Source: Escherichia coli (GTDB taxonomy: Bacteria; Pseudomonadota; Gammaproteobacteria; Enterobacterales; Enterobacteriaceae). Taken from it: 64,000 nucleotides of DNA. How positions within the stretch are numbered: the stretch's first letter is position 1; each line of letters opens with the position of its first letter. The stretch lies in NCBI RefSeq assembly GCF_001677475.2, contig NZ_CP015229.1; one strand, 5' to 3'. The notes beneath the pieces were generated by a model, which ran no database searches, was not told where the DNA came from, and was given only the letters and a program-made list of their open reading frames with translations. Shown here in pieces: positions 7,756 to 52,650 of this stretch. A program made the translations under genes and the position numbers.

Positions 7756-7780
7756 GGCAACCCTGTAATCCATAACAACG

Positions 7781-7820: not shown

Positions 7821-7846
7821 ATTACGTATTAATTCTGTTATCCGGA

Positions 7847-8347
7847 TTAGATATCCTGGGACAGATAGATGCTTACCACACCACGGTAAATACCGGTTTC
7901 CAGTACACCTTTGGTGGTCTGAGCAAACATCAGGTTTTTAGCCAAAGAACCGTTGGTTAAAGCATCGGAAGCAAAAATTTTGGTTGCTTCGAAAGTGGTA
8001 GCGGCATCAGACTTGATTTCAGTACCACCCCAGGTCACAGTCAGCGGAACAGTTTTGCTGCCGTCCAGGTTATGAACCAGTTGCGCAGGGGAAACCAACT
8101 GCATTTTAATGTCTTTAGTAACATCGTTAGACCAAATTTTAGTCATCAACTGATAAGATTGCAGACCCTGACCCGGCAGATATTGCATTTCAACTGCTTT
8201 CGGCAGTGCGCTGTTATCGGTTTGCGTCATATCCAGGGCGGCATCAACGTTAGCTGTTACAGTAATATCTTTTTGTACTGCTAACGCGGAGCCTGCTACA
8301 GAGAATAACGCTGCTACCAGAAGAGATTTTGCAAATGCCTTTTTCAT
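7847..8347 (-). CDS. Major fimbrial subunit, class 5 (CooA/CfaB-like pilin), 166 aa with signal peptide
   Basis: ITVTANVDAALDMTQTDNSALP and C-terminal YRGVVSIYLSQ resemble CooA ISVTASVDPTVDLLQSDGSALP ... YQGLVSIIL as recalled. Confidence 0.85.
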   Translation of the reverse strand: MKKAFAKSLLVAALFSVAGSALAVQKDITVTANVDAALDMTQTDNSALPKAVEMQYLPGQGLQSYQLMTKIWSNDVTKDIKMQLVSPAQLVHNLDGSKTVPLTVTWGGTEIKSDAATTFEATKIFASDALTNGSLAKNLMFAQTTKGVLETGIYRGVVSIYLSQDI

Positions 8348-8376
8348 TACTATTCCTTCGTTTATGACAATGATAA

Positions 8377-9093: not shown

Positions 9094-9342
9094 ATAGAAT
9101 TGATCTTACAAAATTGTTTCAAAAAAGTTAGTGCATTAGAAATGTAGATTTATTGTAAGTCAATATAAAAAATCATTTTTAGTTAATATTAATTTAAAAA
9201 GCGAAAAATTAAGTTACTGAAACATAGTAATTTTCACAATAGCGACGCTTAATTTTTAGGAATTTATAAATATTCACAATGTTAATTAAATACATTATTT
9301 CAATCACCATATTTATATATGAACAATGGCATACCCATAAAT
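9094..9342 (-). promoter_or_regulatory. Strongly AT-rich leader/promoter region of the fimbrial operon
   Basis: About 250 bp of very low GC with A/T tracts immediately upstream of the chaperone start; exact promoter elements not assigned. Confidence 0.4.
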
Positions 9343-32547: not shown

Positions 32548-32924
<377 letters not shown>

Positions 32925-35904: not shown

Positions 35905-37239
35905 TTATTTCTGCAATTCCATACGTTTAATGTCGCCAACTACGAAGAGGTAGCAGACCATCGCCATCAGCGCTGAACATCCCACGAAAACCAGTGCTGC
36001 ATTGAAGGAGTGCAATTCACTTACCAGGTAGCCAATCACCAGTGGAGTGACAATGGAGGCAACATTGCCAAAGACGTTAAAGACGCCGCCGCAGAGGCCA
36101 ACAATCTCTTTCGGCGCGGTGTCAGAAATCACCGGCCAGCCCAGAGCACCAAATCCTTTGCCAAAAAAAGCCAGCGCCATCAGCATGACCACCAGCGTGG
36201 TGTTGTTGGTGTAGTTACATAAGATGATGGTGGAAGCCAGCAACATTCCCAGCACAATCGGTAGCTTACGTGCCAGGGTCAGGGATAAACCGCGTTTGAT
36301 CAGATAATCCGAGAAGACACCTCCCAGCACGCCGCCCGCAAAACCACACAGTGCCGGAATCGAGGCGACCAGACCCACTTTCAGAATCGACATGCCTTTT
36401 TCCTGCACCAGATAAATTGGGAACCAGGTGAGGAAGAACCAGGTAATGGTGTTGATAAAATATTGCCCGAAAAATACGCCCAGCATCATGCGGTTAGAGA
36501 GCAGTTGCTTGATGTAATGCAGTTTGGGACCGCTTGCTGCCGCGCTGCCCGGCTTTTTGTGGTCCATATCGACCACCGCGCCATTTTCAGAGATAAACTT
36601 CAGCTCTTCCGCAGACATACGTGGGTGATCTGTCGGGTTATGAATCAACTTGATCCACAGCGCCGTCAGCACAAAACCAATCACCCCCATAACGGTGAAG
36701 ACGTGCTCCCAGCCCCAGGCGAAAGTCAGCCAGCCAAGCAGCGGCGAAAAGAGCGCCAGCGAGAAATATTGCGCCGAGTTAAAGATGGCGGAGGCAGTAC
36801 CACGTTCTTTTGTCGGAAACCAGGCGGCGACAATACGGGCGTTCGCCGGGAATGATGGCGCTTCCGAGAACCCCAGCATAAAGCGCATAAAGAACATGGA
36901 GATCCCTGCCCAGGCCAGCGGGAACATATCAACAAAGCCTTGCAGGAAGGTGAACAGCGACCAGAAAAAGAGGCTGTAGGTGTAAACTTTTTTCGAGCCA
37001 AACTTATCAAGCAGCCAGCCGCCGGGAATTTGCATCAGCAGGTAGGCCCAGCCAAAAGCGGAGAAGATGTAACCCATCGAAACCGCACTTAACTGCAACT
37101 CTTTTGCCACTTCGGTACCAGCAATAGACAGCGTTGCACGATCGGCGTAGTTAACGGCGGTAACAATAAAAATAATCAGTAATATTAAATAGCGGGTATG
37201 CACGCCTTTCTTTTTTACGTCAACGGTGTCCAGAATCAT
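35905..37239 (-). CDS. garP: Galactarate/glucarate MFS transporter GarP, 444 aa
   Basis: MILDTVDVKKKGVHTRYLILLIIFIVTAVNYADRATLSIAG... Confidence 0.92.
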   Translation of the reverse strand: MILDTVDVKKKGVHTRYLILLIIFIVTAVNYADRATLSIAGTEVAKELQLSAVSMGYIFSAFGWAYLLMQIPGGWLLDKFGSKKVYTYSLFFWSLFTFLQGFVDMFPLAWAGISMFFMRFMLGFSEAPSFPANARIVAAWFPTKERGTASAIFNSAQYFSLALFSPLLGWLTFAWGWEHVFTVMGVIGFVLTALWIKLIHNPTDHPRMSAEELKFISENGAVVDMDHKKPGSAAASGPKLHYIKQLLSNRMMLGVFFGQYFINTITWFFLTWFPIYLVQEKGMSILKVGLVASIPALCGFAGGVLGGVFSDYLIKRGLSLTLARKLPIVLGMLLASTIILCNYTNNTTLVVMLMALAFFGKGFGALGWPVISDTAPKEIVGLCGGVFNVFGNVASIVTPLVIGYLVSELHSFNAALVFVGCSALMAMVCYLFVVGDIKRMELQK

Positions 37240-37613
37240 TTTATTTACCTCGGGTACTTATGCTGATTTTTATTATTATGGGGAAGGTGTTATTTATGAG
37301 TTTTATTTATGCCGTTACGACAATGAACTCGGGAATTAGTATAAGCAGCGGGAGAATAATAATCATTGTGCAAATGCTAATTTAATCAGTACTATTTAAA
37401 TATTATTTTGAGCATATGCACATAAGGTTGCGCGCTAAAGCACAGATTTGCGCTTTACCTTACCGGGCGGCACTGCAATCCCTGAAATGATTGACATTGA
37501 TCACATTTCTGCGTTTAAACTCCTGACATTCTTATTTCACCCAATGAAGTCATTTATTTTTAAATGAGACCAGGTCCTCATTTTAATAACCCCTGGCTGG
37601 AGAATATTGCACA

Positions 37614-39185
37614 ATGGCCAACATCGAAATCAGACAAGAAACGCCAACTGCGTTTTATATAAAAGTTCACGACACAGATAATGTGGCAATTATTGTTAAT
37701 GATAATGGCCTGAAAGCAGGAACGCGTTTTCCGGATGGGCTGGAATTAATTGAACATATTCCCCAGGGGCATAAAGTCGCATTGCTGGACATTCCGGCTA
37801 ATGGTGAAATTATTCGTTATGGCGAAGTGATTGGTTACGCCGTGCGCGCAATCCCACGCGGAAGCTGGATCGACGAATCAATGGTTGTACTACCGGAAGC
37901 GCCGCCGTTACACACGCTGCCACTGGCAACCAAAGTCCCGGAACCCTTACCGCCGCTGGAAGGATACACCTTTGAGGGCTATCGCAATGCCGATGGCAGC
38001 GTGGGCACTAAAAACCTGCTCGGCATCACCACCAGCGTCCACTGTGTAGCAGGCGTGGTGGACTATGTAGTAAAAATCATTGAACGCGATCTGCTACCGA
38101 AATACCCGAACATCGATGGCGTGGTGGGGCTGAATCATTTGTACGGCTGTGGCGTGGCGATTAACGCACCGGCGGCAGTTGTGCCTATTCGTACCATCCA
38201 CAATATTTCGCTGAACCCTAACTTTGGCGGCGAAGTAATGGTGATTGGTCTGGGTTGTGAAAAGTTGCAGCCTGAGCGCCTGCTGACTGGAACGGATGAT
38301 GTGCAAGCTATTCCAGTAGAAAGCGCCAGCATTGTCAGTTTGCAGGATGAAAAGCATGTCGGCTTTCAGTCCATGGTTGAGGATATTTTGCAGGTCGCCG
38401 AACGCCATTTGCACAAACTGAATCAACGGCAGCGAGAAACCTGTCCGGCTTCAGAACTGGTTGTCGGCATGCAGTGCGGTGGCAGCGATGCGTTTTCTGG
38501 CGTAACGGCAAACCCGGCGGTTGGGTATGCGTCTGATCTACTGGTGCGCTGCGGCGCAACGGTGATGTTTTCAGAAGTCACGGAAGTGCGTGACGCGATC
38601 CATCTGCTGACACCACGCGCAGTGAACGAAGAGGTCGGCAAACGGCTGCTGGAGGAGATGGAGTGGTACGATAACTATCTCAATATGGGAAAAACCGACC
38701 GCAGCGCCAACCCTTCGCCGGGCAACAAGAAAGGCGGTCTGGCAAATGTGGTGGAGAAAGCGCTCGGCTCCATTGCTAAATCGGGTAAAAGCGCAATTGT
38801 TGAAGTGCTGTCGCCTGGTCAACGCCCGACTAAACGCGGATTAATTTACGCCGCGACGCCAGCCAGCGATTTTGTCTGTGGCACGCAACAGGTGGCTTCG
38901 GGTATCACCGTGCAAGTGTTTACGACCGGTCGCGGTACGCCGTACGGCCTGATGGCGGTACCCGTCATTAAAATGGCAACCCGCACCGAGCTGGCGAACC
39001 GCTGGTTTGATTTAATGGATATTAATGCGGGCACCATCGCTACCGGCGAAGAAACTATTGAAGAGGTGGGCTGGAAGTTGTTCCACTTTATTCTCGACGT
39101 CGCCAGCGGGAAGAAGAAAACCTTCTCAGATCAATGGGGACTGCATAACCAGCTGGCGGTGTTTAACCCAGCACCGGTGACCTGA
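37614..39185 (+). CDS. garD: Galactarate dehydratase GarD, 523 aa
   Basis: [39 protein letters not shown]...; divergent from garPLRK. Confidence 0.92.
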
Positions 39186-39210
39186 TTTCTTTTGGAACTT
39201 TCCTCGCAAA

Positions 39211-39237
39211 ACATGGCCTTAGTGCCATGTTTTTATT
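39211..39237 (+). terminator. Intrinsic terminator after garD
   Basis: acatggc-cttagt-gccatgt hairpin followed by ttttatt. Confidence 0.65.
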
Positions 39238-39333
39238 GTTTAAAGTCCCCACGTCCATTAATAATGCATTTGCATTACCTTAGTTCAAGCTTATAATTTG
39301 AGCAGAAAACAGGCTGTAAAAGGACAGTGAATC

Positions 39334-39669
39334 ATGCCCGCTAATGCTCGCTCTCACGCTGTACTGACCACTGAATCAAAGGTCACGATACGCGGACAAA
39401 CAACTATCCCCGCGCCAGTGCGTGAGGCCTTAAAACTGAAGCCAGGCCAGGACAGCATTCATTACGAAATTCTGCCTGGTGGGCAAGTATTTATGTGCCG
39501 ACTGGGAGATGAACAGGAGGATCATACTATGAATGCATTTTTGCGTTTTCTGGATGCAGATATCCAGAACAACCCGCAAAAAACTCGTCCATTCAACATT
39601 CAACAAGGAAAGAAACTTGTCGCTGGCATGGACGTCAACATTGATGATGAGATTGGCGACGACGAATAA
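39334..39669 (+). CDS. prlF: Type II antitoxin PrlF (SohA), 111 aa
   Basis: MPANARSHAVLTTESKVTIRGQTTIPAPVREALKLKPGQ (AbrB/SpoVT-type DNA-binding N-terminus), acidic C-terminus. Confidence 0.9.
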   Translation: MPANARSHAVLTTESKVTIRGQTTIPAPVREALKLKPGQDSIHYEILPGGQVFMCRLGDEQEDHTMNAFLRFLDADIQNNPQKTRPFNIQQGKKLVAGMDVNIDDEIGDDE

Positions 39670-40133
39670 TGGATTTTCCACAAAGGGTTAATGGTTGGGC
39701 GCTATATGCTCATCCCTGTTTTCAGGAAACCTACGACGCTTTAGTTGCCGAAGTCGAGACATTAAAGGGAAAAGATCCTGAAAATTATCAGAGAAAAGCC
39801 GCCACAAAGTTATTGGCGGTAGTCCATAAAGTGATTGAGGAGCATATCACGGTCAATCCATCATCACCGGCATTCCGTCATGGCAAGTCGTTAGGCTCTG
39901 GGAAAAATAAAGACTGGTCACGGGTAAAATTTGGTGCTGGTCGTTATCGTCTCTTCTTTCGTTATAGTGAAAAAGAGAAAGTCATCATTCTGGGATGGAT
40001 GAACGATGAAAACACTCTGCGCACCTACGGTAAAAAAACAGATGCCTATACCGTATTCAGCAAAATGTTAAAAAGAGGACATCCTCCTGCCGACTGGGAA
40101 ACCCTCACCCGAGAGACAGAAGAAACCCATTGA
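39669..40133 (+). CDS. yhaV: Type II toxin YhaV (ribonuclease), 154 aa
   Basis: MDFPQRVNGWALYAHPCFQETYDALVAEVE...; start overlaps the prlF stop (ATGA). Confidence 0.9.
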   Translation: MDFPQRVNGWALYAHPCFQETYDALVAEVETLKGKDPENYQRKAATKLLAVVHKVIEEHITVNPSSPAFRHGKSLGSGKNKDWSRVKFGAGRYRLFFRYSEKEKVIILGWMNDENTLRTYGKKTDAYTVFSKMLKRGHPPADWETLTRETEETH

Positions 40134-40187
40134 TGGTGTTCACAATGCCCGCCGAACGCATTCGTGTTGACCAGCGGGCACCCTTTC

Positions 40188-40997
40188 TCACTCCCCGACC
40201 AGAATCACTTCAACCCCAGCCTTTCGCAGGCCTTCCAGACTATCCGCAGGAATGCCTTCATCAACAATGATCATGTCGATACGTTGAGTATCAATGATCT
40301 TATGTAAACTGGAACGATTGAACTTACTGGAATCGGTGACCACGATGATCCGTTCCGCAACTTCGCACATCCGACGGTTTAAACGGGCTTCATCTTCATT
40401 ATGCGTGCTGACACCGCGCTCCAGATCAATCGCATCTACGCCAAGAAACAGCATATCGAAGTGGTAATTTTGCAGCGATTGTTCAGCCTGATCGCCGTAA
40501 AAAGATTGCGACTGACGGCGCAAATGCCCGCCGGTCATCAGCAGCTCAACGCCTTCCGCTTCCAGCAACGCATTAGCCACGTTCATACCGTTGGTCATCG
40601 CAATTACGTCAGTGTGCTTGCGCATCAGACGAGCAATCTCAAAAGTGGTGGTCCCGGAATCGAGGATCACCCGATGACCTGGCTGAATCAACTCAACGGC
40701 AGCTTTCGCAACGCTGCGTTTCATCGCGGTGTTCAGCGCGCTTTTATCTTCCACTGATGGCTCGACTGACGGCGTCGTGCTATCGCAGATCAACGCGCCG
40801 CCATAGGCACGCACAGCGATCCCCTGCTTTTCCAGAAACGCCAGATCGTTGCGGATCGTCACAGTAGATACGCCATACAATGCCGACAGATCGTTAACCT
40901 GCACACTCCCTTGCTGTCGCAGACGCTGAATGATCTGTTCTCGTCGCTCGCTGGTGCCTGTCATTCGCTTCTCACCTGAAGCGTCGGTATTACTCAT
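40188..40997 (-). CDS. agaR: DeoR-family repressor AgaR, 269 aa
   Basis: [52 protein letters not shown]. Confidence 0.92.
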
Positions 40998-41016
40998 AGT
41001 AAGTCCTTTCGTAAAA

Positions 41017-41214
41017 CTTTCGTTTCATTTCGTTTTGCCTATTAACGCCTTTCTATTAAGCAAATGCAAGCCCACCTTACCCATTGGCGCAAGCTACTCT
41101 CGTTTCAGTGGCTTTCATTATGTTTCTTTTGTGAATCAGATCAGAAAACCATTATCTTTCGTTTTATTTTTATCTCACCATGACGCAGTATCAATTGAAA
41201 CAAAACGAAAGATC
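41017..41214. promoter_or_regulatory. Cluster of AgaR-operator-like motifs (TTTCGTTT repeats) in the agaR/kbaZ divergent region
   Basis: ctttcgtttcatttcgttttgcc (41017..41039), ctttcgttttatttttatc (41156..41174), inverted ttgaaacaaaacgaaagatc (41195..41214); fits the published AgaR site pattern as recalled. Confidence 0.55.
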
Positions 41215-41245
41215 AATATCGCAGTAATCTGAACTGGAGAGGAAA

Positions 41246-42526
41246 GTGAAACATCTGACAGAAATGGTGAGACAGCACAAAGAGGGTAAAACAAATGGGA
41301 TTTATGCCGTTTGTTCCGCACATCCGCTGGTGCTGGAAGCTGCAATCCGCTACGCCAGTGCAAACCAAACGCCGTTACTGATTGAAGCAACCTCCAATCA
41401 GGTGGACCAGTTCGGCGGTTATACCGGAATGACGCCCGCCGATTTTCGCGGCTTTGTTTGTCAGCTCGCCGACTCGTTGAATTTCCCACAGGATGCGTTG
41501 ATTCTGGGTGGCGACCATCTGGGTCCAAACCGCTGGCAAAATCTGCCTGCCGCTCAGGCAATGGCCAATGCCGATGATTTGATTAAAAGCTACGTGGCGG
41601 CAGGATTCAAAAAAATCCACCTTGATTGCAGCATGTCCTGTCAGGACGATCCAATTCCCTTAACTGATGACATCGTGGCTGAACGCGCCGCCCGTCTGGC
41701 GAAAGTGGCGGAAGAAACCTGTCGCGAACACTTTGGCGAAGCCGATCTGGAGTATGTCATTGGTACCGAAGTGCCGGTACCTGGCGGCGCGCATGAAACC
41801 TTAAGCGAGCTGGCGGTCACCACGCCGGATGCCGCCCGCGCCACGCTGGAAGCCCATCGTCACGCCTTTGAAAAGCAAGGTTTGAATGCCATCTGGCCAC
41901 GCATCATTGCCCTGGTGGTGCAACCCGGCGTCGAATTCGATCACACCAACGTTATTGATTATCAGCCCGCCAAAGCGAGCGCCTTAAGCCAGATGGTCGA
42001 AAACTACGAAACGCTGATTTTCGAAGCGCACTCTACCGATTATCAAACGCCGCAATCGCTGCGCCAGCTGGTGATTGACCACTTTGCCATTCTGAAAGTT
42101 GGCCCGGCGCTGACCTTCGCCCTGCGTGAAGCTCTGTTCTCTCTGGCAGCGATTGAAGAAGAACTGGTGCCAGCAAAAGCCTGTTCTGGTCTGCGTCAGG
42201 TGCTGGAAAACGTGATGCTCGACCGCCCGGAATACTGGCAAAGCCACTACCACGGTGACGGCAACGCGCGTCGTCTGGCGCGTGGTTATAGCTACTCGGA
42301 TCGCGTGCGCTATTACTGGCCGGACAGCCAGATTGATGACGCTTTCGCTCATCTGGTTCGTAATCTGGCGGATTCACCAATTCCGCTACCGCTCATCAGC
42401 CAGTATTTGCCGCTGCAATACGTGAAAGTTCGCTCCGGCGAGCTGCAGCCAACACCACGGGAACTCATTATCAACCATATTCAGGACATCCTGGCGCAGT
42501 ACCACACAGCCTGTGAAGGCCAATAA
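41246..42526 (+). CDS. kbaZ: Tagatose-bisphosphate aldolase subunit KbaZ (AgaZ), 426 aa, GTG start
   Basis: [61 protein letters not shown]. Confidence 0.92.
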
Positions 42527-42548
42527 GCAAAATAAAGAGGAACACGCT

Positions 42549-43022
42549 ATGCCAAATATTGTTTTAAGCCGGATTGATGAGCGTTTGATTCACGGTCAGG
42601 TCGGCGTTCAGTGGGTCGGATTTGCGGGGGCAAATCTGGTGCTGGTAGCCAACGATGAGGTTGCCGAAGATCCGGTACAACAAAACCTGATGGAAATGGT
42701 ACTGGCAGAAGGGATCGCCGTACGTTTCTGGACGCTGCAAAAAGTTATCGACAACATTCATCGCGCCGCCGATCGACAGAAAATCCTGCTGGTTTGTAAA
42801 ACACCTGCCGATTTCCTGACGCTGGTGAAAGGTGGCGTTCCGGTGAATCGCATTAACGTTGGCAATATGCACTACGCCAATGGCAAGCAACAAATCGCCA
42901 AAACGGTTTCTGTGGATGCGGGTGATATCGCAGCATTTAACGACCTGAAAGCCGCTGGGGTGGAATGCTTCGTTCAGGGCGTCCCGACAGAGCCTGCTGT
43001 GGACCTCTTTAAATTACTTTGA
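42549..43022 (+). CDS. agaV: N-acetylgalactosamine PTS IIB component AgaV, 157 aa
   Basis: ORF 42513..43022; start at MPNIVLSRIDERLIHGQVGVQW (mannose-family IIB). Confidence 0.9.
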   Translation: MPNIVLSRIDERLIHGQVGVQWVGFAGANLVLVANDEVAEDPVQQNLMEMVLAEGIAVRFWTLQKVIDNIHRAADRQKILLVCKTPADFLTLVKGGVPVNRINVGNMHYANGKQQIAKTVSVDAGDIAAFNDLKAAGVECFVQGVPTEPAVDLFKLL

Positions 43023-43032
43023 GGGATTCATC

Positions 43033-43812
43033 ATGGAAATCAGTCTGTTGCAGGCATTCGCGTTGGGCATTATCGCCTTTATCGCTGGCCTGGATATGTT
43101 TAACGGCCTAACCCATATGCACCGCCCGGTGGTCCTCGGCCCGTTGGTCGGGCTGGTACTTGGCGATCTGCATACCGGTATTTTAACCGGCGGTACGCTG
43201 GAACTGGTGTGGATGGGGCTGGCCCCGCTGGCAGGCGCACAGCCGCCTAACGTGATTATCGGTACTATCGTCGGCACGGCGTTTGCCATTACTACCGGCG
43301 TGAAACCCGATGTCGCGGTCGGTGTCGCCGTACCTTTCGCTGTCGCAGTACAGATGGGGATTACCTTCCTGTTCTCGGTGATGTCTGGCGTAATGTCCCG
43401 CTGCGACCGGATGGCGGAGAACGCCGATACACGCGGCATTGAACGCGTGAACTATCTGGCACTGCTGGCACTCGGCACTTTCTATTTTCTCTGCGCTTTC
43501 CTGCCTATCTACTTCGGCGCAGAACATGCCAAAACCATCATTGATGTCCTACCGCAACGATTAATCGACGGCCTCGGCGTCGCGGGCGGCATCATGCCAG
43601 CAATCGGTTTTGCCGTACTGCTGAAAATCATGATGAAAAACGTCTACATCCCCTACTTCATCCTGGGCTTTGTTGCCGCAGCCTGGCTCAAGTTACCGGT
43701 GCTGGCTATTGCTGCCGCCGCGCTGGCGATGGCGCTGATCGACCTGCTGCGTAAATCTCCTGAACCGACTCAACCTGCGGCACAGAAAGAGGAATTTGAA
43801 GATGGCATCTAA
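43033..43812 (+). CDS. agaW: N-acetylgalactosamine PTS IIC component AgaW, full length 259 aa
   Basis: MEISLLQAFALGIIAFIAGLDMFNG...; intact here, truncated in K-12 as recalled. Confidence 0.88.
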   Translation: MEISLLQAFALGIIAFIAGLDMFNGLTHMHRPVVLGPLVGLVLGDLHTGILTGGTLELVWMGLAPLAGAQPPNVIIGTIVGTAFAITTGVKPDVAVGVAVPFAVAVQMGITFLFSVMSGVMSRCDRMAENADTRGIERVNYLALLALGTFYFLCAFLPIYFGAEHAKTIIDVLPQRLIDGLGVAGGIMPAIGFAVLLKIMMKNVYIPYFILGFVAAAWLKLPVLAIAAAALAMALIDLLRKSPEPTQPAAQKEEFEDGI

Positions 43813-44680
43813 TCAAACCACCCTGCCGAACGTCAGTGAAAACGAAGAAACACTGCTGACAGGCGTCAATGAAAACGTGTATGAAGATCAGAGCATTGGC
43901 GCAGAGCTGACGAAAAAAGATATCAACCGCGTCGCCTGGCGTTCCATGCTGTTACAAGCGTCTTTTAACTACGAGCGTATGCAGGCTTCCGGCTGGTTGT
44001 ACGGTCTGCTGCCTGCTCTGAAAAAGATCCACACTAATAAACGCGACCTGGCGCGCGCCATGAAGGGGCATATGGGTTTCTTCAATACCCATCCGTTTCT
44101 GGTGACGTTTGTTATCGGCATTATCCTTGCGATGGAGCGTTCTAAGCAGGACGTTAACAGTATTCAGAGCACCAAAATTGCCGTCGGTGCGCCGCTCGGC
44201 GGGATTGGCGATGCGATGTTCTGGCTAACGCTACTGCCGATTTGTGGCGGGATAGGCGCAAGCCTCGCGCTACAAGGCTCTATTCTTGGCGCAGTCGTCT
44301 TTATTGTGCTGTTCAACGTGGTACACCTGGGGCTGCGTTTTGGTCTGGCGCATTATGCTTACCGCATGGGCGTGGCGGCGATTCCACTCATTAAAGCGAA
44401 TACCAAAAAAGTCGGCCATGCTGCGTCAATCGTTGGGATGACGGTAATCGGCGCGCTGGTGGCAACCTATGTTCGTTTAAGCACCACGCTGGAAATCACC
44501 GCTGGCGACGCAGTGGTTAAGTTACAGGCTGATGTTATCGACAAACTGATGCCTGCCTTCTTACCGCTGGTCTACACCCTGACCATGTTCTGGCTGGTAC
44601 GCCGCGGCTGGAGTCCGCTGCGCCTGATTGCAGTTACCGTGGTACTCGGCATCGTCGGTAAATTCTGTCATTTCCTTTAA
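43796..44680 (+). CDS. agaE: N-acetylgalactosamine PTS IID component AgaE, 294 aa
   Basis: Mannose-family IID profile; MKMASNQTTLPNVSENEETLLTGVNENVYEDQSIGAELTKKDINRVAWRS. Confidence 0.85.
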   Translation: MKMASNQTTLPNVSENEETLLTGVNENVYEDQSIGAELTKKDINRVAWRSMLLQASFNYERMQASGWLYGLLPALKKIHTNKRDLARAMKGHMGFFNTHPFLVTFVIGIILAMERSKQDVNSIQSTKIAVGAPLGGIGDAMFWLTLLPICGGIGASLALQGSILGAVVFIVLFNVVHLGLRFGLAHYAYRMGVAAIPLIKANTKKVGHAASIVGMTVIGALVATYVRLSTTLEITAGDAVVKLQADVIDKLMPAFLPLVYTLTMFWLVRRGWSPLRLIAVTVVLGIVGKFCHFL

Positions 44681-44697
44681 ATACAATGAGGTATTAG

Positions 44698-45132
44698 ATG
44701 TTAAGTATTATTTTGACAGGGCATGGCGGATTTGCCAGCGGCATGGAAAAAGCAATGAAGCAAATCCTCGGCGAGCAATCGCAGTTTATCGCCATCGATT
44801 TTCCGGAAACCTCAAGCACCGCGCTGCTTACATCGCAGCTTGAAGAGGCCATCGCCCAACTGGATTGTGAAGACGGCATTGTTTTTCTGACGGATTTGCT
44901 GGGCGGCACGCCGTTTCGCGTAGCTTCAACGCTGGCGATGCAAAAACCGGGCTGTGAAGTGATCACCGGCACCAATTTGCAACTGCTACTGGAGATGGTG
45001 CTGGAGCGCGAAGGGTTAAGCGGTGAAGAGTTCCGTGTGCAGGCGCTTGAGTGTGGACACCGTGGGCTGACCAGTCTGGTAGATGAGTTAGGCCGCTGCC
45101 ATGAAGAATGTCCGGTCGAGGAAGGAATATGA
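44698..45132 (+). CDS. agaF: N-acetylgalactosamine PTS IIA component AgaF, 144 aa
   Basis: MLSIILTGHGGFASGMEKAMKQILGEQ (mannose-family IIA). Confidence 0.85.
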   Translation: MLSIILTGHGGFASGMEKAMKQILGEQSQFIAIDFPETSSTALLTSQLEEAIAQLDCEDGIVFLTDLLGGTPFRVASTLAMQKPGCEVITGTNLQLLLEMVLEREGLSGEEFRVQALECGHRGLTSLVDELGRCHEECPVEEGI

Positions 45133-46262
45133 CACCCGTTTTGCGCGCCAGAAGGCTGCTGACTGAAGAGGGATGGCTCGATGACCATCAGTTGCGTATT
45201 GCTGACGGTGTAATCGCAGCAATCGAACCGATTCCAGTGGGCGTGACTGAACGCGATGCGGAACTGCTCTGCCCCGCTTACATCGACACCCATGTACACG
45301 GTGGTGCGGGCGTTGATGTAATGGATGACGCGCCGGATGTGCTCGACAAGCTGGCAATGCACAAAGCACGCGAAGGTGTCGGCAGTTGGTTACCGACCAC
45401 CGTAACCGCGCCGCTTAATACCATTCATGCGGCGCTGGAACGTATTGCTCAACGTTGCCAACGCGGCGGACCTGGTGCGCAAGTGCTGGGGAGTTATCTC
45501 GAAGGACCGTACTTCACGCCGCAGAATAAAGGTGCGCATCCGCCGGAGCTGTTCCGCGAGCTGGAAATTGCCGAGCTGGATCAATTGATTGCCGTTTCTC
45601 AGCACACCTTGCGCGTGGTGGCGCTGGCACCGGAAAAAGAAGGGGCATTGCAGGCCATCCGCCATCTTAAACAGCAAAACGTACGGGTGATGCTGGGGCA
45701 TAGCGCGGCGACCTGGCAACAAACCCGTGCCGCGTTTGACGCTGGTGCCGACGGCCTGGTGCATTGCTATAACGGGATGACAGGTTTACATCACCGCGAA
45801 CCGGGAATGGTTGGCGCGGGATTAACGGACAAGCGCGCCTGGCTGGAACTGATAGCCGATGGTCATCATGTGCATCCGGCGGCGATGTCGCTGTGTTGTT
45901 GCTGTGCGAAAGAGAGAATCGTGCTCATCACCGACGCGATGCAGGCAGCAGGGATGCCGGATGGTCGCTATACGTTATGTGGTGAAGAAGTGCAGATGCA
46001 CGGTGGCGTTGTCCGTACCGCGTCCGGTGGGCTGGCGGGCAGTACGCTGTCTGTCGATGCGGCAGTGCGCAACATGGTCGAGTTGACGGGCGTAACGCCT
46101 GCGGAAGCCATCCATATGGCGTCGCTGCATCCGGCGCGTATGCTGGGTGTTGATGATGTTCTGGGATCGCTTAAACCGGGCAAACGCGCCAGCGTCGTTG
46201 CGCTGGATAGCGGGCTGCATGTGCAACAAATCTGGATTCAGGGTCAATTAGCTTCGTTTTGA
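45129..46262 (+). CDS. agaA: N-acetylgalactosamine-6-phosphate deacetylase AgaA, 377 aa, full length
   Basis: ORF 45108..46262; start at MTPVLRARRLLTEEGWLDDHQLRIADG; NagA-like metal-binding HVHGG motif. Confidence 0.88.
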   Translation: MTPVLRARRLLTEEGWLDDHQLRIADGVIAAIEPIPVGVTERDAELLCPAYIDTHVHGGAGVDVMDDAPDVLDKLAMHKAREGVGSWLPTTVTAPLNTIHAALERIAQRCQRGGPGAQVLGSYLEGPYFTPQNKGAHPPELFRELEIAELDQLIAVSQHTLRVVALAPEKEGALQAIRHLKQQNVRVMLGHSAATWQQTRAAFDAGADGLVHCYNGMTGLHHREPGMVGAGLTDKRAWLELIADGHHVHPAAMSLCCCCAKERIVLITDAMQAAGMPDGRYTLCGEEVQMHGGVVRTASGGLAGSTLSVDAAVRNMVELTGVTPAEAIHMASLHPARMLGVDDVLGSLKPGKRASVVALDSGLHVQQIWIQGQLASF

Positions 46263-46339
46263 TGGTTTGCTCCTTTATTGGGCCTTCACTTCCCCCGTAA
46301 GGCCTTTCTTTTTCTTTCGTTGTGCTCTGTGCAGGGTAT

Positions 46340-46391
46340 CGGATGCGACGCTGACACATCTTCTTTGACCTACGGTACGCCGCATCCGGCA
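46340..46391. repeat. REP-like palindromic unit in the agaA/agaS intergenic region
   Basis: cggatgcgacgctg ... gtacgccgcatccgg inverted repeat. Confidence 0.5.
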
Positions 46392-46460
46392 ATCGGTGAA
46401 CATAGCGACGTCATCACGCAATCCTTTAATCTTCCCTTGTCTTTTCTTTCAACGATCACA

Positions 46461-46558
46461 AATTTCGTTTTATTTCCTTTTCCTCCATTGATCTTTCAGT
46501 TTCTTTTCTATAGATTTTGATCAACGAAATGTATCACCAAGTGAAACGAAACGAAAGG
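46461..46558. promoter_or_regulatory. AgaR-operator-like motifs upstream of agaS
   Basis: aatttcgttttatttccttttcc and inverted gtgaaacgaaacgaaagg. Confidence 0.5.
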
Positions 46559-46611
46559 TAAGCGAAAGCGACAACGCCCGACGTCAAGTTCATCAGACTA
46601 AGGATTGAGTT

Positions 46612-47766
46612 ATGCCAGAAAATTACACCCCTGCTGCTGCCGCAACCGGTACATGGACTGAAGAAGAGATCCGCCATCAGCCTCGCGCATGGATCCGTTC
46701 ACTCACCAACATCGACGCGCTACGTTCCGCGCTCAATAACTTCCTTGAACCGTTACTGCGCAAAGAGAATCTGCGGGTAATCCTGACCGGAGCCGGAACC
46801 TCGGCATTTATCGGTGACATCATCGCGCCGTGGCTCGCCAGCCATACCGGTAAAAACTTCAGCGCCGTACCGACCACCGATCTGGTCACCAATCCGATGG
46901 ACTACCTGAATCCAGCTCATCCACTGCTGTTGATCTCCTTCGGTCGATCCGGCAACAGCCCGGAAAGCGTCGCCGCCGTGGAACTGGCAAATCAATTTGT
47001 ACCCGAGTGCTATCACCTGCCGATCACCTGCAACGAAGCGGGCGCTCTTTACCAAAACGCGATCAACAGCGACAACGCGTTTGCCCTACTGATGCCCGCA
47101 GAAACGCACGATCGCGGCTTTGCGATGACCAGCAGCATTACCACCATGATGGCCAGCTGCCTCGCGGTTTTCGCACCTGAAACGATCAACAGCCAGAGCT
47201 TCCGCGACGTGGCGGATCGTTGCCAGGCGATCCTAACCTCACTGGGCGATTTCAGCGAAGGTGTGTTTGGTTACGCACCGTGGAAACGGATCGTTTATCT
47301 CGGCAGCGGTGGCTTACAGGGCGCAGCACGCGAGTCGGCGCTGAAAGTACTGGAACTGACGGCGGGTAAACTGGCGGCCTTTTATGATTCCCCGACCGGA
47401 TTCCGTCATGGACCAAAATCGCTGGTCGATAACGAAACGCTGGTGGTGGTATTTGTCTCCAGCCACCCTTACACCCGTCAGTATGATCTTGATCTGCTGG
47501 CTGAACTTCGCCGCGATAACCAGGCGATGCGCGTAATCGCTATCGCCGCGGAAAGCAACGACGTTATTACCGCCGGTCCACATATCATCCTGCCGCCGTC
47601 CCGTCACTTTATCGACGTTGAGCAGGCATTTTGCTTCCTGATGTACGCCCAGACGTTTGCACTGATGCAATCGCTGCACATGGGCAATACGCCGGATACC
47701 CCATCAGCCAGCGGCACCGTTAACCGCGTGGTGCAAGGCGTAATCATTCATCCGTGGCAGGCATAA
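46612..47766 (+). CDS. agaS: Galactosamine-6-phosphate deaminase/isomerase AgaS (SIS domains), 384 aa
   Basis: MPENYTPAAAATGTWTEEEIRHQPRAWIRSL... Confidence 0.92.
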   Translation: MPENYTPAAAATGTWTEEEIRHQPRAWIRSLTNIDALRSALNNFLEPLLRKENLRVILTGAGTSAFIGDIIAPWLASHTGKNFSAVPTTDLVTNPMDYLNPAHPLLLISFGRSGNSPESVAAVELANQFVPECYHLPITCNEAGALYQNAINSDNAFALLMPAETHDRGFAMTSSITTMMASCLAVFAPETINSQSFRDVADRCQAILTSLGDFSEGVFGYAPWKRIVYLGSGGLQGAARESALKVLELTAGKLAAFYDSPTGFRHGPKSLVDNETLVVVFVSSHPYTRQYDLDLLAELRRDNQAMRVIAIAAESNDVITAGPHIILPPSRHFIDVEQAFCFLMYAQTFALMQSLHMGNTPDTPSASGTVNRVVQGVIIHPWQA

Positions 47767-48639
<873 letters not shown>

Positions 48640-48805
48640 TCATTAGTTTTTTATGATTTATCCCAATGTACTTCCCGATTAATATCGGGGAGTGCCTTAA
48701 TGGAAAAGGAGATGACTAAACCTTAATAAATACATCAGTACAATATCGCAACAATAATATATTTAAAAAAATTATATTATTCAACTTTATGGTGAGGATT
48801 ACACA

Positions 48806-49282
48806 ATGAGCAGTCCAAATATTCTCTTAACCCGTATTGATAACCGTCTGGTTCATGGCCAGGTTGGCGTGACCTGGACATCCACCATCGGTGCAAATCT
48901 GCTGGTAGTCGTGGATGATGTTGTCGCTAACGATGATATTCAACAGAAATTAATGGGTATTACCGCGGAAACCTACGGCTTTGGCATTCGTTTCTTTACT
49001 ATCGAAAAAACCATTAACGTCATCGGCAAAGCTGCACCACACCAGAAGATCTTCCTGATTTGCCGTACGCCACAAACGGTACGTAAATTGGTAGAAGGTG
49101 GCATTGACCTGAAAGATGTCAACGTCGGCAATATGCATTTCTCGGAAGGGAAAAAGCAAATCAGCAGTAAAGTTTATGTCGATGACCAGGATCTCACGGA
49201 CTTACGTTTTATTAAACAACGTGGTGTGAATGTTTTCATTCAGGACGTCCCTGGCGATCAAAAAGAACAAATCCCTGACTAA
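48806..49282 (+). CDS. agaB: Galactosamine PTS IIB component AgaB, 158 aa
   Basis: MSSPNILLTRIDNRLVHGQVGVTW. Confidence 0.9.
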   Translation: MSSPNILLTRIDNRLVHGQVGVTWTSTIGANLLVVVDDVVANDDIQQKLMGITAETYGFGIRFFTIEKTINVIGKAAPHQKIFLICRTPQTVRKLVEGGIDLKDVNVGNMHFSEGKKQISSKVYVDDQDLTDLRFIKQRGVNVFIQDVPGDQKEQIPD

Positions 49283-49320
49283 ATCTAAAATCACCTTAAT
49301 ATTAGTTTGAGGTAATAAAA

Positions 49321-50124
49321 ATGCATGAAATAACCCTACTTCAGGGATTATCCCTGGCGGCGTTAGTTTTCGTTCTGGGGATTGATTTTTGGCTGGAAGC
49401 CTTATTTTTATTCCGCCCGATAATCGTTTGTACCCTAACTGGCGCTATTCTCGGTGATATTCAGACTGGCTTAATTACCGGTGGTCTGACAGAGTTGGCT
49501 TTCGCCGGATTAACCCCTGCAGGTGGTGTTCAGCCGCCCAACCCGATTATGGCGGGTCTGATGACCACCGTCATTGCATGGTCTACGGGCGTTGATGCCA
49601 AAACAGCAATTGGTCTTGGCCTGCCGTTTAGTTTGTTAATGCAGTACGTCATTCTGTTCTTCTATTCCGCTTTCTCATTATTTATGACCAAAGCCGATAA
49701 ATGCGCGAAAGAGGCGGATACGGCAGCGTTTTCCCGGCTTAACTGGACAACGATGCTCATCGTCGCTTCAGCGTATGCGGTGATTGCTTTCCTCTGTACT
49801 TACCTGGCACAAGGGGCGATGCAGGCGCTGGTGAAAGCGATGCCCGCCTGGTTGACCCACGGCTTTGAAGTGGCTGGCGGTATTCTGCCTGCCGTTGGTT
49901 TTGGCTTGCTGCTGCGCGTAATGTTCAAAGCGCAATATATCCCTTACCTGATCGCCGGTTTCCTGTTTGTTTGCTACATCCAGGTCAGCAACCTGTTGCC
50001 GGTTGCCGTACTGGGTGCAGGCTTTGCGGTGTATGAGTTTTTCAATGCGAAATCCCGGCAGCAAGCGCAACCGCAGCCCGTTGCCAGTAAAAATGAAGAA
50101 GAGGACTACAGCAATGGGATCTGA
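49321..50124 (+). CDS. agaC: Galactosamine PTS IIC component AgaC, 267 aa
   Basis: MHEITLLQGLSLAALVFVLGIDFWLEALFLFRPII... Confidence 0.9.
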   Translation: MHEITLLQGLSLAALVFVLGIDFWLEALFLFRPIIVCTLTGAILGDIQTGLITGGLTELAFAGLTPAGGVQPPNPIMAGLMTTVIAWSTGVDAKTAIGLGLPFSLLMQYVILFFYSAFSLFMTKADKCAKEADTAAFSRLNWTTMLIVASAYAVIAFLCTYLAQGAMQALVKAMPAWLTHGFEVAGGILPAVGFGLLLRVMFKAQYIPYLIAGFLFVCYIQVSNLLPVAVLGAGFAVYEFFNAKSRQQAQPQPVASKNEEEDYSNGI

Positions 50125-50905
50125 AATCAGTAAAAAAGATATCACCCGTCTGGGCTTTCGTTCGTCGCTGCTGCAAGCGAGCTTTAACTACGAAAGGATG
50201 CAGGCGGGCGGTTTTACCTGGGCGATGTTGCCGATCCTGAAAAAGATTTATAAGGATGACAAACCGGGCCTAAGCGCGGCGATGAAAGATAACCTCGAAT
50301 TTATTAATACCCACCCAAATCTCGTCGGATTCCTGATGGGGTTATTAATTTCGATGGAAGAAAAAGGAGAAAACCGCGACACCATTAAAGGCCTCAAAGT
50401 GGCACTGTTTGGCCCAATCGCCGGGATTGGCGATGCGATTTTCTGGTTTACTTTGTTGCCGATTATGGCGGGAATTTGCTCATCATTTGCCAGCCAGGGA
50501 AACCTGCTGGGGCCGATTCTATTTTTCGCCGTTTACCTGCTTATCTTTTTCCTGCGCGTCGGCTGGACCCACGTCGGTTATTCAGTCGGCGTGAAGGCGA
50601 TCGATAAAGTGCGAGAGAACTCGCAGATGATTGCCCGTTCGGCAACCATCCTCGGGATCACGGTAATCGGCGGGCTGATCGCTTCGTATGTGCATATTAA
50701 CGTGGTGACATCGTTTGCCATCGACAGTACCCACAGCGTCGCGCTGCAGCAGGATTTCTTCGATAAAGTCTTCCCGAACATTTTACCGATGGCCTACACC
50801 CTGCTGATGTATTACTTCCTGCGGGTGAAAAAAGCGCATCCGGTGCTGTTAATCGGCGTGACGTTTGTGCTCTCTATTGTTTGTTCCGCATTCGGCATTT
50901 TGTAA
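50114..50905 (+). CDS. agaD: Galactosamine PTS IID component AgaD, 263 aa
   Basis: ORF 49967..50905; start at MGSEISKKDITRLGFRSSLLQASFNYERMQ (ATG 50114, overlaps the agaC 3' end). Confidence 0.9.
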   Translation: MGSEISKKDITRLGFRSSLLQASFNYERMQAGGFTWAMLPILKKIYKDDKPGLSAAMKDNLEFINTHPNLVGFLMGLLISMEEKGENRDTIKGLKVALFGPIAGIGDAIFWFTLLPIMAGICSSFASQGNLLGPILFFAVYLLIFFLRVGWTHVGYSVGVKAIDKVRENSQMIARSATILGITVIGGLIASYVHINVVTSFAIDSTHSVALQQDFFDKVFPNILPMAYTLLMYYFLRVKKAHPVLLIGVTFVLSIVCSAFGIL

Positions 50906-51673
50906 ATGGAACGAGGCACTGCTTCTGGCGGTGCCTCTTTACTTAAGGAATTTCATCCTGTGCAAACCCTTCAGCAAGTTGAAAACTATACGGCGTTAAG
51001 TGAACGTGCCAGCGAATATTTATTGGCCGTGATCCGTAGCAAACCGGATGCCGTGATTTGCCTGGCGACCGGAGCCACGCCATTACTGACGTATCATTAT
51101 CTGGTAGAAAAAATCCACCAGCAGCAGGTTGATGTCAGCCAACTAACCTTCGTCAAGCTCGACGAATGGGTGGATCTGCCATTAACTATGCCTGGCACCT
51201 GCGAAACTTTCCTGCAACAGCATATCGTGCAGCCGCTGGGGCTACGTGAAGACCAGCTCATCAGCTTTCGCTCCGAAGAGATAAATGAGACAGAGTGCGA
51301 ACGGGTAACGAACCTGATTGCGCGCAAAGGCGGTCTGGATTTATGCGTTCTCGGATTGGGGAAAAACGGTCATCTTGGGCTGAACGAACCGGGAGAAAAC
51401 CTGCAACCGACCTGCCATATCAGTCAACTTGATGCCAGAACACAGCAACATGAGATGTTAAAAACCGCGGGCCGTCCCGTGACTCGTGGGATCACCTTAG
51501 GCCTGAAGGATATTCTCAATGCCCGCGAAGTTTTGTTACTGGTGACTGGCGAAGGAAAGCAGGATGCGACAGAACGTTTTCTCACGGCTAAAGTCTCCAC
51601 CGCTATCCCGGCTTCGTTTTTATGGCTGCATAACTATTTCACATGCATGATTGATGAGATGTGTCGTCGTTAA
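50906..51673 (+). CDS. agaI: Putative galactosamine-6-phosphate deaminase/isomerase AgaI (NagB-like), 255 aa
   Basis: ATG directly follows the agaD stop; MERGTASGGASLLKEFHPVQTLQQVENYTALSERASEYLLAV. Confidence 0.88.
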   Translation: MERGTASGGASLLKEFHPVQTLQQVENYTALSERASEYLLAVIRSKPDAVICLATGATPLLTYHYLVEKIHQQQVDVSQLTFVKLDEWVDLPLTMPGTCETFLQQHIVQPLGLREDQLISFRSEEINETECERVTNLIARKGGLDLCVLGLGKNGHLGLNEPGENLQPTCHISQLDARTQQHEMLKTAGRPVTRGITLGLKDILNAREVLLLVTGEGKQDATERFLTAKVSTAIPASFLWLHNYFTCMIDEMCRR

Positions 51674-51675
51674 CT

Positions 51676-51719
51676 CGCCTGCTACAGGCGTTGCAACGCT
51701 ATTCCTGCTGCGACGCCTG
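51676..51719. terminator. Inverted repeat between convergent agaI and rsmI (possible bidirectional terminator)
   Basis: acaggcgt ... acgcctgt 8 bp arms with a long loop; weak as a classic terminator. Confidence 0.3.
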
Positions 51720-51722
51720 TAA

Positions 51723-52586
51723 TCACTCTCCCTGCTGCTCCAGTGCATACTTATACAGCGCATTTTTCTTCACGCCGTGAATTTCTGCGGCCAGCGCCGC
51801 CGCTTTTTTCAGCGGCAGTTCTGCCTGTAGCAGCGCCAGCGTGCGCAGGGCATCGGCGGGTAAGTCTTCTTCCTGTGCTTTATGGCCTTCGACAATCAGT
51901 ACCATTTCGCCTTTGCGACGGTTTTCATCTTCTTTGACCCACGCCAGCAGCTCGCCAACGGGCGCGCCGTGAATGGTTTCCCAGGTTTTGGTCAGCTCAC
52001 GCGCCAGAACGACGTAGCGGGATTCGCCTAATACCGCAACGATATCTTCCAGGCTATCTAACAGACGGTGGGTAGATTCATAAAAAATCAGCGTGCGCGG
52101 CTCCGCTTCAATGGCTTTTAGCGCATCACGGCGGCCTTTTGATTTGGCAGGTAAAAAGCCTTCATAACAAAAACGATCGGATGGTAAACCCGCGGCGCTT
52201 AACGCAGTGATAGCAGCACACGGCCCGGGTAGCGGCACCACGAGAATCCCCGCTTCACGGCAGGTACGCACCAGATGGTAGCCAGGATCGTTAATTAGCG
52301 GCGTTCCGGCATCGGAAACCAGCGCAATGTTTTGCCCCTCTTGCAGCTTCGCCAGCAGCGTTTCGGCTTTTTGTTGTTCGTTATGGTCGTGCAGCGCAAA
52401 CAACCGAGCATTAATCCCAAAATGTTGCAGCAATAAACCGGTGTGACGCGTATCCTCGGCGGCAATCAGATCAACGGCCTGTAATACCTCCAACGCACGC
52501 TGGGTGATATCCGCCAGATTGCCGATTGGCGTCGGTACAATGTAAAGCTGGCCCTGAGAATTATCCGCCGATTGGTGTTGTTTCAT
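51723..52586 (-). CDS. rsmI: 16S rRNA C1402 2'-O-methyltransferase RsmI, 287 aa
   Basis: [48 protein letters not shown]. Confidence 0.92.
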
Positions 52587-52650
52587 TGTGTCGTCCGTAT
52601 TGCCGATTTAATATTGAGCATTGCGTAAAAAAAATATCACTGGATACATT

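Follow-up and report, generated by a model that had tools for sequence, protein, structure and literature searches.

A complete, apparently functional aga/gam regulon of the E. coli C type retains the segment deleted in K-12

The 64-kb stretch of Escherichia coli DNA analysed here (the window) carries an aga/kba cluster at 40188-51673. The genes lie in the order agaR, then kbaZ-agaV-agaW-agaE-agaF-agaA, then agaS-kbaY-agaB-agaC-agaD-agaI, and 43033-46262 begins exactly at the agaW start and ends exactly at the agaA stop. The genes, with their NCBIfam scores, and the AgaR operator-like sites returned by a pattern search are listed below.

40188-40997, minus strand: agaR (NF040755 AgaR, 465.9 bits, cut-off 260)
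41014-41037 and 41109-41132, plus strand: AgaR operator-like sites in the divergent agaR/kbaZ promoter region (Pr/Pz), with 0 and 2 mismatches
41246-42526, plus strand: kbaZ (agaZ), predicted non-catalytic subunit of tagatose-1,6-bisphosphate aldolase, 426 aa, GTG start (NF012002, 895.8 bits, cut-off 707)
42549-43022, plus strand: agaV, predicted GalNAc PTS EIIB, 157 aa (NF008508, 319.9 bits, cut-off 180)
43033-43812, plus strand: agaW, predicted GalNAc PTS EIIC, 259 aa, ATG start (NF040757, 410.8 bits, cut-off 300; PF03609)
43802-44680, plus strand: agaE, predicted GalNAc PTS EIID, 292 aa (NF040760, 617.6 bits, cut-off 500, model positions 1-292/292; PF03613)
44698-45132, plus strand: agaF, predicted EIIA common to the GalNAc and GalN PTS, 144 aa (NF040761, 219 bits, cut-off 130)
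45129-46262, plus strand: agaA, predicted GalNAc-6-P deacetylase of the NagA family, 377 aa (TIGR00221 nagA, 289.9 bits, cut-off 225.65)
46459-46482, plus strand, and 46537-46560, minus strand: AgaR operator-like sites in the agaS promoter region (Ps), with 2 and 0 mismatches
46612-47766, plus strand: agaS, predicted GalN-6-P deaminase/isomerase, 384 aa (TIGR02815 agaS_fam, 631.9 bits, cut-off 529.2)
47779-48639, plus strand: kbaY (agaY), predicted catalytic subunit of tagatose-1,6-bisphosphate aldolase, 286 aa (NF009375, 664.3 bits, cut-off 542)
48806-49282, plus strand: agaB, predicted GalN PTS EIIB, 158 aa (NF007288, 281.6 bits, cut-off 180)
49321-50124, plus strand: agaC, predicted GalN PTS EIIC, 267 aa (NF007289, 407.2 bits, cut-off 300)
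50114-50905, plus strand: agaD, predicted GalN PTS EIID, 263 aa (NF007359, 456.5 bits, cut-off 400)
50906-51673, plus strand: agaI, NagB-like protein, 255 aa (NF007291, 471.2 bits, cut-off 271)

Other genes that the pathway needs, ptsH, ptsI, nagA and that for tagatose-6-P kinase, lie outside the window. The gene products were compared by global alignment with those of two annotated E. coli references, ATCC 8739 and AST215. All 13 genes were present, and their order and orientation matched the annotation of both strains; the best RefSeq matches to the cluster are annotated with the identical arrangement. The reading frames were uninterrupted and full length, with no internal stops across the 13 genes, and 12 of the 13 products aligned to ATCC 8739 without gaps and at equal lengths, the exception being agaI at its 3' end. 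AgaV (157/157), AgaW (259/259), AgaF (144/144), AgaC (267/267) and AgaD (263/263) were 100% identical to ATCC 8739, as were AgaS (384/384), AgaE, AgaR (269/269), AgaB and AgaD to AST215. Identities to ATCC 8739 were 268/269 for AgaR, 157/158 for AgaB, 291/292 for AgaE (single change I224V) and, with no gaps, 421/426 for KbaZ and 372/377 for AgaA. AgaI aligned without gaps to AST215 (252/255), and its C-terminal ~13 residues were unlike those of the 251-aa form of K-12 and ATCC 8739. We attribute this different end to the absence here of the yraHIJK fimbrial operon, which lies 3' of agaI in both of those strains. All 13 products passed NCBIfam cut-offs, 11 of them through specific equivalog models; for the other two, the model passed was the nagA equivalog (AgaA) or one at subfamily level (AgaS). 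HMM coverage was near the whole model in every product, from AgaE (1-292/292) to AgaA (6-379/380).

An earlier sequence-only reading had described agaW, agaE, agaF and agaA as full-length open frames, and the ORF list, the gapless alignments and the equivalog HMM scores all confirm this. The other genes that it listed (agaV, agaB/C/D, agaS, agaI, kbaY and kbaZ) are also present and intact by alignment and NCBIfam, as is agaR. Hidden frameshifts, which it had named as a finding that would overturn it, were looked for in the 13 genes and not found, and the comparison it proposed with an E. coli C-type cluster, made here with ATCC 8739, gave the full 13-gene set in the same order without frameshift or stop. 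Its lengths for agaW (259 aa), agaF (144 aa) and agaA (377 aa) stood, whereas that for agaE (294 aa) did not. The agaE open frame at 43796-44680 encodes 294 aa from an upstream TTG; we take the protein to be 292 aa because the ATG at 43802 is the RefSeq start in AST215 and ATCC 8739 and fits the NCBIfam AgaE model over 1-292/292. The agaA open frame (45108-46262) comprises 384 aa, and 377 aa from the annotated ATG at 45129. The last 11 nt of agaW are also the first of agaE, and the agaA start overlaps the agaF stop (ATGA). Two antisense ORFs, at 43014-43439 (141 aa) and 44694-45362 (222 aa), were rejected as spurious; neither has a Pfam match and each lies opposite a strongly conserved coding frame.

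Relative to ATCC 8739, the four genes of 43033-46262 showed 81 synonymous and 6 non-synonymous differences (pN/pS 0.025), agaW contributing 16 synonymous and no non-synonymous ones. The pN/pS was 0.00-0.10 in every single gene, indicating purifying selection. Pfam searches returned EII-Sor, EIID-AGA, EIIA-man and Amidohydro_1, and the IIA, IIB, IIC and IID parts of a mannose-family PTS EII complex are all present in AgaVWEF (PF03610, PF03830, PF03609 and PF03613). The family HMMs of the ManXYZ-type mannose/fructose/sorbose PTS matched AgaW, AgaE, AgaF and AgaV; the ManXYZ-specific models scored under cut-off, whereas the Aga-specific equivalogs scored over it. Unlike in ManXYZ-type systems, the EIIA here is a separate polypeptide common to two transporters. 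His9 of AgaF (in TGHGG) and His15 of AgaV (in IHGQV) lie in conserved motifs and are candidate phosphorylation sites, a role that we presume from IIA-Man and IIB-Lev. AgaA resembles NagA of the NagA/NagB GlcNAc pathway, in that it matches the nagA equivalog and aligns end to end with solved NagA structures (residues 4-374 to 7nut). Its motifs HVHGG (55-59), LEGPY (124-128), LGHS (189-192), VHCYN (211-215) and ITDAM (267-271) probably supply the metal/catalytic set (HxH, E, H, H, D) of NagA-family amidohydrolases. We use the names agaW, agaE, agaF and agaA for the full genes and read the PGAP label 'nagA' on agaA as that of a paralogue. KbaY is identical at 285 of 286 residues to the solved structure 1GVF and has the HLDHH, GTAHG and VLHGAS motifs.

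By blastn and junction alignments, K-12 MG1655 was found to lack 2,305 bp corresponding to window positions 43409-45713 or, equivalently, 43399-45703. CGCTGCGACC (43399-43408) and CGCGGCGACC (45704-45713) border the deletion and share an exact GCGACC microhomology. The cut falls after codon 125 of agaW, leaving a K-12 agaW' of 125 native and 8 out-of-frame codons; agaE, agaF and codons 1-195 of agaA are gone. The resulting agaW'-'agaA junction, in which CGCTGCGACC is directly followed by TGGCAAC, does not occur in the window, where its flanks are 2,305 bp apart. In this deletion variant (Aga- Gam-) the flanks and remaining aga genes are co-linear with the window at 97.5-98.3% identity, and the agaA-agaS spacer holds another REP-like stretch. 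These alignments bear out the statement in the earlier reading that the K-12 deletion truncates agaW and agaA and removes agaE and agaF, and they agree with the "2.3 Kb deletion" described in the K-12 aga cluster (PMC3668189). Of 5,426 complete genomes of E. coli, 4,930 (~91%) carry the segment that K-12 has lost, and 371 (~7%) carry the K-12 junction. The intact aga cluster is the majority, normal state of E. coli and not a speciality of this strain; K-12 is the exception.

The AgaR consensus gave four matches in 64 kb compared with 0.18 expected, all of them in the two aga promoter regions. The consensus used was one that we take to be that of Ray & Larson 2004, and we call the sites operator-like. 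In an alignment of five strains, the CTTTC/GAAAG repeats of the agaS-promoter sites were conserved. The agaR/kbaZ intergenic region is 98% identical to K-12. The lower identity of the agaA-agaS spacer to K-12 (85.9%) was considered as a peculiarity of the window and rejected, the alignment showing instead a REP-like replacement specific to K-12. A REP-like palindrome also lies upstream of the Ps AgaR sites here, at ~46335-46400. A crude scan of 40900-51800 for sigma-70 promoters and terminators gave no promoter-like match at Pz or Ps on the plus strand and fewer sites than in shuffled controls, so it is no evidence against promoters there.

The closest described system is the 13-gene aga/gam regulon of the E. 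coli C / ATCC 8739 type, reported as Aga+ Gam+ (Brinkkötter et al. 2000, as cited in PMC3668189). ATCC 8739 has these 13 genes, identically ordered and oriented, an agaA-agaS intergenic region of the same type and the same AgaR-site repeats, and those proteins that are not identical are 98-99.7% identical. It differs by ~2% at the nucleotide level, nearly all synonymous, by an agaI of 251 rather than 255 aa and by yraHIJK, which follows agaI there but is absent here. O157:H7 strains also have agaW/E/F/A, as in the window; EDL933 and Sakai are Aga+ Gam-, and the spinach-outbreak isolates are Aga- (PMC3668189). Their pathway-disabling changes are amber mutations at codon 8 of agaC and codon 72 of agaI and, in some isolates, AgaF G91S (PMC3668189). 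None of these three defects was found in the window genes, which keep Gln8 in AgaC, Gln72 in AgaI and the wild-type Gly91 in AgaF. Judged from its sequence, 40188-51673 is very probably a complete E. coli C-type aga/gam regulon that looks functional, with 43033-46262 being the part that K-12 lost. This is the ancestral, already described state.

The mechanism can be carried over by near-identity from published work on E. coli C and O157:H7, the Aga+ Gam+ phenotype of E. coli C and the aga gene roles being given in PMC3668189. AgaR would keep Pr, Pz and Ps repressed in the absence of GalNAc and GalN; once either is available, Pz would drive kbaZ-agaV-agaW-agaE-agaF-agaA and Ps agaS-kbaY-agaB-agaC-agaD-agaI. 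GalNAc would be taken up and phosphorylated through the mannose-family PTS formed by AgaV (IIB), AgaW (IIC) and AgaE (IID), and GalN taken up through AgaB, AgaC and AgaD, with AgaF as the single EIIA and phosphate source for both systems. GalNAc-6-P would be deacetylated by AgaA or NagA, and the GalN-6-P deaminated and isomerised to tagatose-6-P by AgaS. A kinase encoded outside the cluster would phosphorylate tagatose-6-P, and KbaY/KbaZ would cleave the tagatose-1,6-bisphosphate. In the published work, agaI proved dispensable, nagA could stand in for agaA, and the real GalN-6-P deaminase was AgaS (PMC3668189); the intactness of agaA therefore weighs less here than that of agaW, agaE and agaF. 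From the E. coli C phenotype we infer, on good grounds, that the source strain would be Aga+ Gam+, growing on GalNAc and GalN, and the cluster is presumably expressed there.

Two alternatives concern the DNA itself. The apparent full-length frames might be pseudogenes or mis-called frames concealing frameshifts or premature stops. Twelve of the 13 proteins, however, are gapless and of the same length against two references, the 255-aa AgaI is gapless to AST215, and the HMM matches extend over almost the whole model for every product. Moreover, 7,134 bp of the sequence match at 100% identity an independent draft assembly that an exact-protein look-up had pointed to (GCA_019140065.1, contig ABBDJY010000006.1), and we give this reading next to no probability. 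The segment 43409-45713 might instead not be ancestral but have entered a K-12-like deleted cluster recently by horizontal transfer, and the four genes, with a GC content of 55.7% that is a little higher than the 50.3% mean of the window, would fit such an origin. Yet 91% of complete E. coli genomes have the segment at this position, and its divergence from ATCC 8739 (pS ~0.10) is close to that seen in the neighbouring agaS. The K-12 junction also lies inside the agaW and agaA frames, leaving two truncated genes in line with their intact counterparts, a pattern characteristic of a deletion. An insertion is extremely unlikely.

Two further alternatives accept the cluster as intact and concern what it does. 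The cluster may be silent or impaired, rendering the strain Aga- and/or Gam-, through missense changes or through a defect elsewhere (general PTS, kinase or regulation). Several substitutions are specific to the window relative to both references (KbaY R92S, KbaZ L160R, AgaA H3P and K104E, AgaI S165N and A169T), and there is a precedent in O157:H7 spinach isolates, where the single change AgaF G91S abolishes GalNAc use (PMC3668189). The KbaY S92 codon in its 56-nt context had an exact match in 0 of 5,426 complete E. coli genomes, so S92 appears to be lineage-specific rather than a common polymorphism. Structural homologues nevertheless differ at position 92 (E in 8q57, K in 2fjk), which is not part of the HLDHH, GTAHG or VLHGAS motifs; from this variability we judge S92 to be probably benign. 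The low pN/pS of each gene points to selection that still maintains function, AgaA has a redundant counterpart in NagA (PMC3668189), and a protein identical to this AgaA was found in 87 blocks of a public assembly index, suggesting a widespread lineage and not a decaying clone. An impaired cluster thus seems unlikely. An exact 43-mer scan across the GTDB species representatives gave no match. The closest complete RefSeq E. coli genome is only 98.6-98.7% identical, and it is conceivable, if very improbable, that the strain belongs to an under-sampled E. coli lineage, marked by KbaY R92S and KbaZ L160R, in which the aldolase pair or the regulon has shifted in specificity or regulation relative to E. 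coli C.

An intact regulon of the E. coli C type, the reading that we favour, would be relevant to gut colonisation, since GalNAc and GalN are mucin-derived sugars. The Aga phenotype also serves as a marker, as in the Aga- O157:H7 outbreak isolates. Beyond correct annotation the importance of the locus is small; it is a reminder to annotators that K-12 is an atypical reference for aga, and the analysis yields, as a by-product, a base-level map of the K-12 deletion together with its frequency. For at least one of the genomes that carry the K-12 junction, a chicken is the recorded host.

The segment at 43033-46262 carries four consecutive plus-strand reading frames, taken from the ORF list of window 36000-54000 and translated:

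43033-43812, plus strand, agaW, 259 aa from an ATG start
43796-44680, plus strand, agaE, 294 aa counted from a TTG
44698-45132, plus strand, agaF, 144 aa
45108-46262, plus strand, agaA, 384 aa

The starts annotated by RefSeq in AST215, the closest complete genome, and in ATCC 8739 correspond here to ATG 43802 for agaE (292 aa) and ATG 45129 for agaA (377 aa), and the 292-aa AgaE covers the NCBIfam AgaE model from 1 to 292 of 292. On these grounds, the gene coordinates and lengths of the sequence-only reading stand for agaW, agaF and agaA, while its 294 aa for AgaE gives way to 292 aa. The agaW/agaE overlap is 11 nt and the agaF/agaA overlap is ATGA, and inspection revealed purine-rich stretches upstream of all four starts. 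The junctions are of the translationally coupled operon type.

Hidden frameshifts and stops were sought in all 13 genes of the aga/kba cluster by translation and global alignment to the annotated proteins of ATCC 8739 and AST215. No internal stop was found in any of the 13 genes, and 12 of them aligned gap-free at lengths equal to both references, confirming the earlier observation of an intact cluster. AgaI has 255 aa, as in AST215; the ATCC 8739 form is 4 residues shorter and its last ~13 residues are unlike. AgaW (259/259), AgaE (291/292), AgaF (144/144) and AgaA (372/377) were identical or nearly so to ATCC 8739, and AgaV, AgaC and AgaD were also 100% identical. In nucleotide sequence, 81 synonymous and 6 non-synonymous changes separate the four genes from ATCC 8739 (pS 0.10, pN 0.0025, ratio 0.025), and pN/pS was ≤0.10 for each cluster gene, a pattern of continued selection rather than decay. 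An assembly error is unlikely, because the draft GCA_019140065.1, an independent NCBI assembly, has 100% identity to the DNA here across 7,134 bp.

All 13 products scored above the curated cut-offs of their NCBIfam profiles.

NCBIfam scores in bits, with cut-offs in brackets
AgaV, 319.9 (180)
AgaW, 410.8 (300)
AgaE, 617.6 (500)
AgaF, 219 (130)
AgaA, 289.9 (225.65), nagA equivalog
AgaS, 631.9 (529.2), subfamily model
KbaY, 664.3 (542)
KbaZ, 895.8 (707)
AgaI, 471.2 (271)
AgaR, 465.9 (260)
AgaB, 281.6 (180)
AgaC, 407.2 (300)
AgaD, 456.5 (400)

The Pfam families of AgaW, AgaE, AgaF and AgaA are EII-Sor, EIID-AGA, EIIA-man and Amidohydro_1, respectively; two long antisense ORFs opposite these genes had no Pfam match. 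Solved NagA structures align to AgaA end to end, and AgaA retains the motifs HVHGG, LEGPY, LGHS, VHCYN and ITDAM, which we take from NagA to bear the metal ligands and the catalytic Asp. His9 of AgaF lies in TGHGG and His15 of AgaV in IHGQV; both are putative phosphorylation sites on the model of IIA-Man and IIB-Lev. KbaY is identical to the crystallised 1GVF at 285 of 286 positions, the sole change being R92S at a position occupied by E or K in homologous structures.

The sequence-only reading had also stated that K-12 carries truncated agaW and agaA and has lost agaE and agaF, and the comparison with K-12 agrees with this. In the MG1655 annotation agaW and agaA are pseudogenes and agaE and agaF are absent. 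Blastn of the window against K-12 gave co-linear blocks at 36332-43408 and 45704-51630 that overlap by 10 bp in K-12. Together with the junction alignments (left flank CGCTGCGACC, right flank CGCGGCGACC, GCGACC exact in both), this overlap places the segment missing from K-12 at window 43409-45713, or 2,305 bp. Of AgaW, K-12 agaW' thus retains codons 1-125, after which 8 out-of-frame codons lead to a stop, and 'agaA keeps codons 196-377 alone. The mapped loss is the '2.3 Kb deletion' to which the Aga- Gam- phenotype of K-12 was attributed (PMC3668189). K-12 agaBCD is intact yet annotated as cryptic because the shared EIIA, encoded by agaF, is lost. Three defects have been reported for O157:H7, namely the AgaF substitution Gly91Ser (Aga-) and amber stops at codon 8 of agaC (Gam-) and codon 72 of agaI (PMC3668189); in contrast, protein alignment revealed AgaF Gly91, AgaC Gln8 and AgaI Gln72 in the window.

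Published work has shown that agaI is dispensable, that nagA can stand in for agaA, and that agaS, proposed to encode GalN-6-P deaminase, is essential (PMC3668189). Since agaI is dispensable and agaA replaceable, the functionally decisive genes of the focal segment are agaW and agaE, for the GalNAc permease, and agaF, whose EIIA serves both sugars. The genotype is the E. coli C type of the aga/gam regulon, known for a long time, and an Aga+ Gam+ phenotype would be expected, though a handful of lineage-specific substitutions, and genes beyond the window, may bear on it. The earlier interpretation that both sugars should be usable is supported.

The 14-kb cluster was matched in 5,425 of 5,426 complete E. 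coli genomes, and window 43500-45500, the 2-kb core of the segment deleted in K-12, was present at ≥80% coverage in 4,930 of them (90.9%). The K-12 agaW'-'agaA junction, represented by a 200-bp probe (positions 6973-7172 of the K-12 locus L002), was contiguous in 371 (6.8%). Laboratory derivatives are among its carriers, and so is at least one isolate whose recorded host is chicken (TUM12357), so the deletion is not confined to strains labelled K-12 laboratory stock. An intact cluster is the norm and K-12 the exception; the state found here is ordinary and already known.

AgaR sites were searched for with a consensus after Ray & Larson 2004. Four matches with ≤3 mismatches were found in the 64 kb, against 0.18 expected:

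41014 and 41109, agaR-kbaZ spacer, candidate AgaR sites, consensus match
46459 and 46537, agaA-agaS spacer, candidate AgaR sites, consensus match

These fall in exactly the regions bound by AgaR, at Pr, Pz and Ps (PMC3668189). A crude sigma-70 scan was uninformative, with fewer promoter-like sites than in shuffled controls and none on the plus strand in these two regions. Identity to K-12 is 98% in the agaR-kbaZ spacer; in the agaA-agaS spacer it is only 86%, because K-12 alone has a different ~60-bp REP-like stretch in a five-strain alignment. In that alignment the window, ATCC 8739, AST215 and L005, a further compared strain, share one common type, and CTTTC/GAAAG repeats are conserved. The window's own REP-like palindromic stretch lies at 46335-46400, and K-12 differs at the same spot.

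Among the 5,426 complete RefSeq E. coli genomes, the best match reached about 98.6-98.7% identity in the aga region, against ~97.8% elsewhere. A window-specific 43-mer had no match among GTDB species representatives. An index of public assemblies has the exact AgaA protein in 87 blocks, and contig ABBDJY010000006.1 of GCA_019140065.1 provides the 7.1 kb identical to the window. The source is a natural E. coli-type lineage without a representative among the complete genomes.

At 51631-51729 the window lacks the yraHIJK fimbrial operon, which spans ~5.5 kb in both K-12 and ATCC 8739, and the agaI-rsmI gap is ~99 bp, an arrangement shared by AST215; the break falls within the 3' end of agaI and yields the 255-aa AgaI, with a C-terminus unlike the 251-aa K-12 form. 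At 32422/32423, beside rnpB (32548-32924, minus strand), the rnpB-yhaC interval of ATCC 8739 is ~286 bp longer; RNase P RNA was the sole Rfam gathering-level match in the window. At 63748, just past yhbW, the window has no counterpart of the IS621 (IS110-like) element found between yhbW and mtr in AST215. Compared with AST215, ATCC 8739 and K-12, window 9343-63928 showed no unmatched block resembling an inserted element. Between exuT and exuR, a ~5.4-kb block at 3958-9342, absent from AST215, holds four minus-strand ORFs (361, 912, 166 and 238 aa). At this site an operon for CS1-type fimbriae, with genes for major subunit, chaperone, TcfC-like usher and CfaE/CblD tip adhesin, is annotated in 1,902 of 5,426 E. 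coli genomes, and since the best identity to the window is just 88.8%, the block is a strongly divergent allele.
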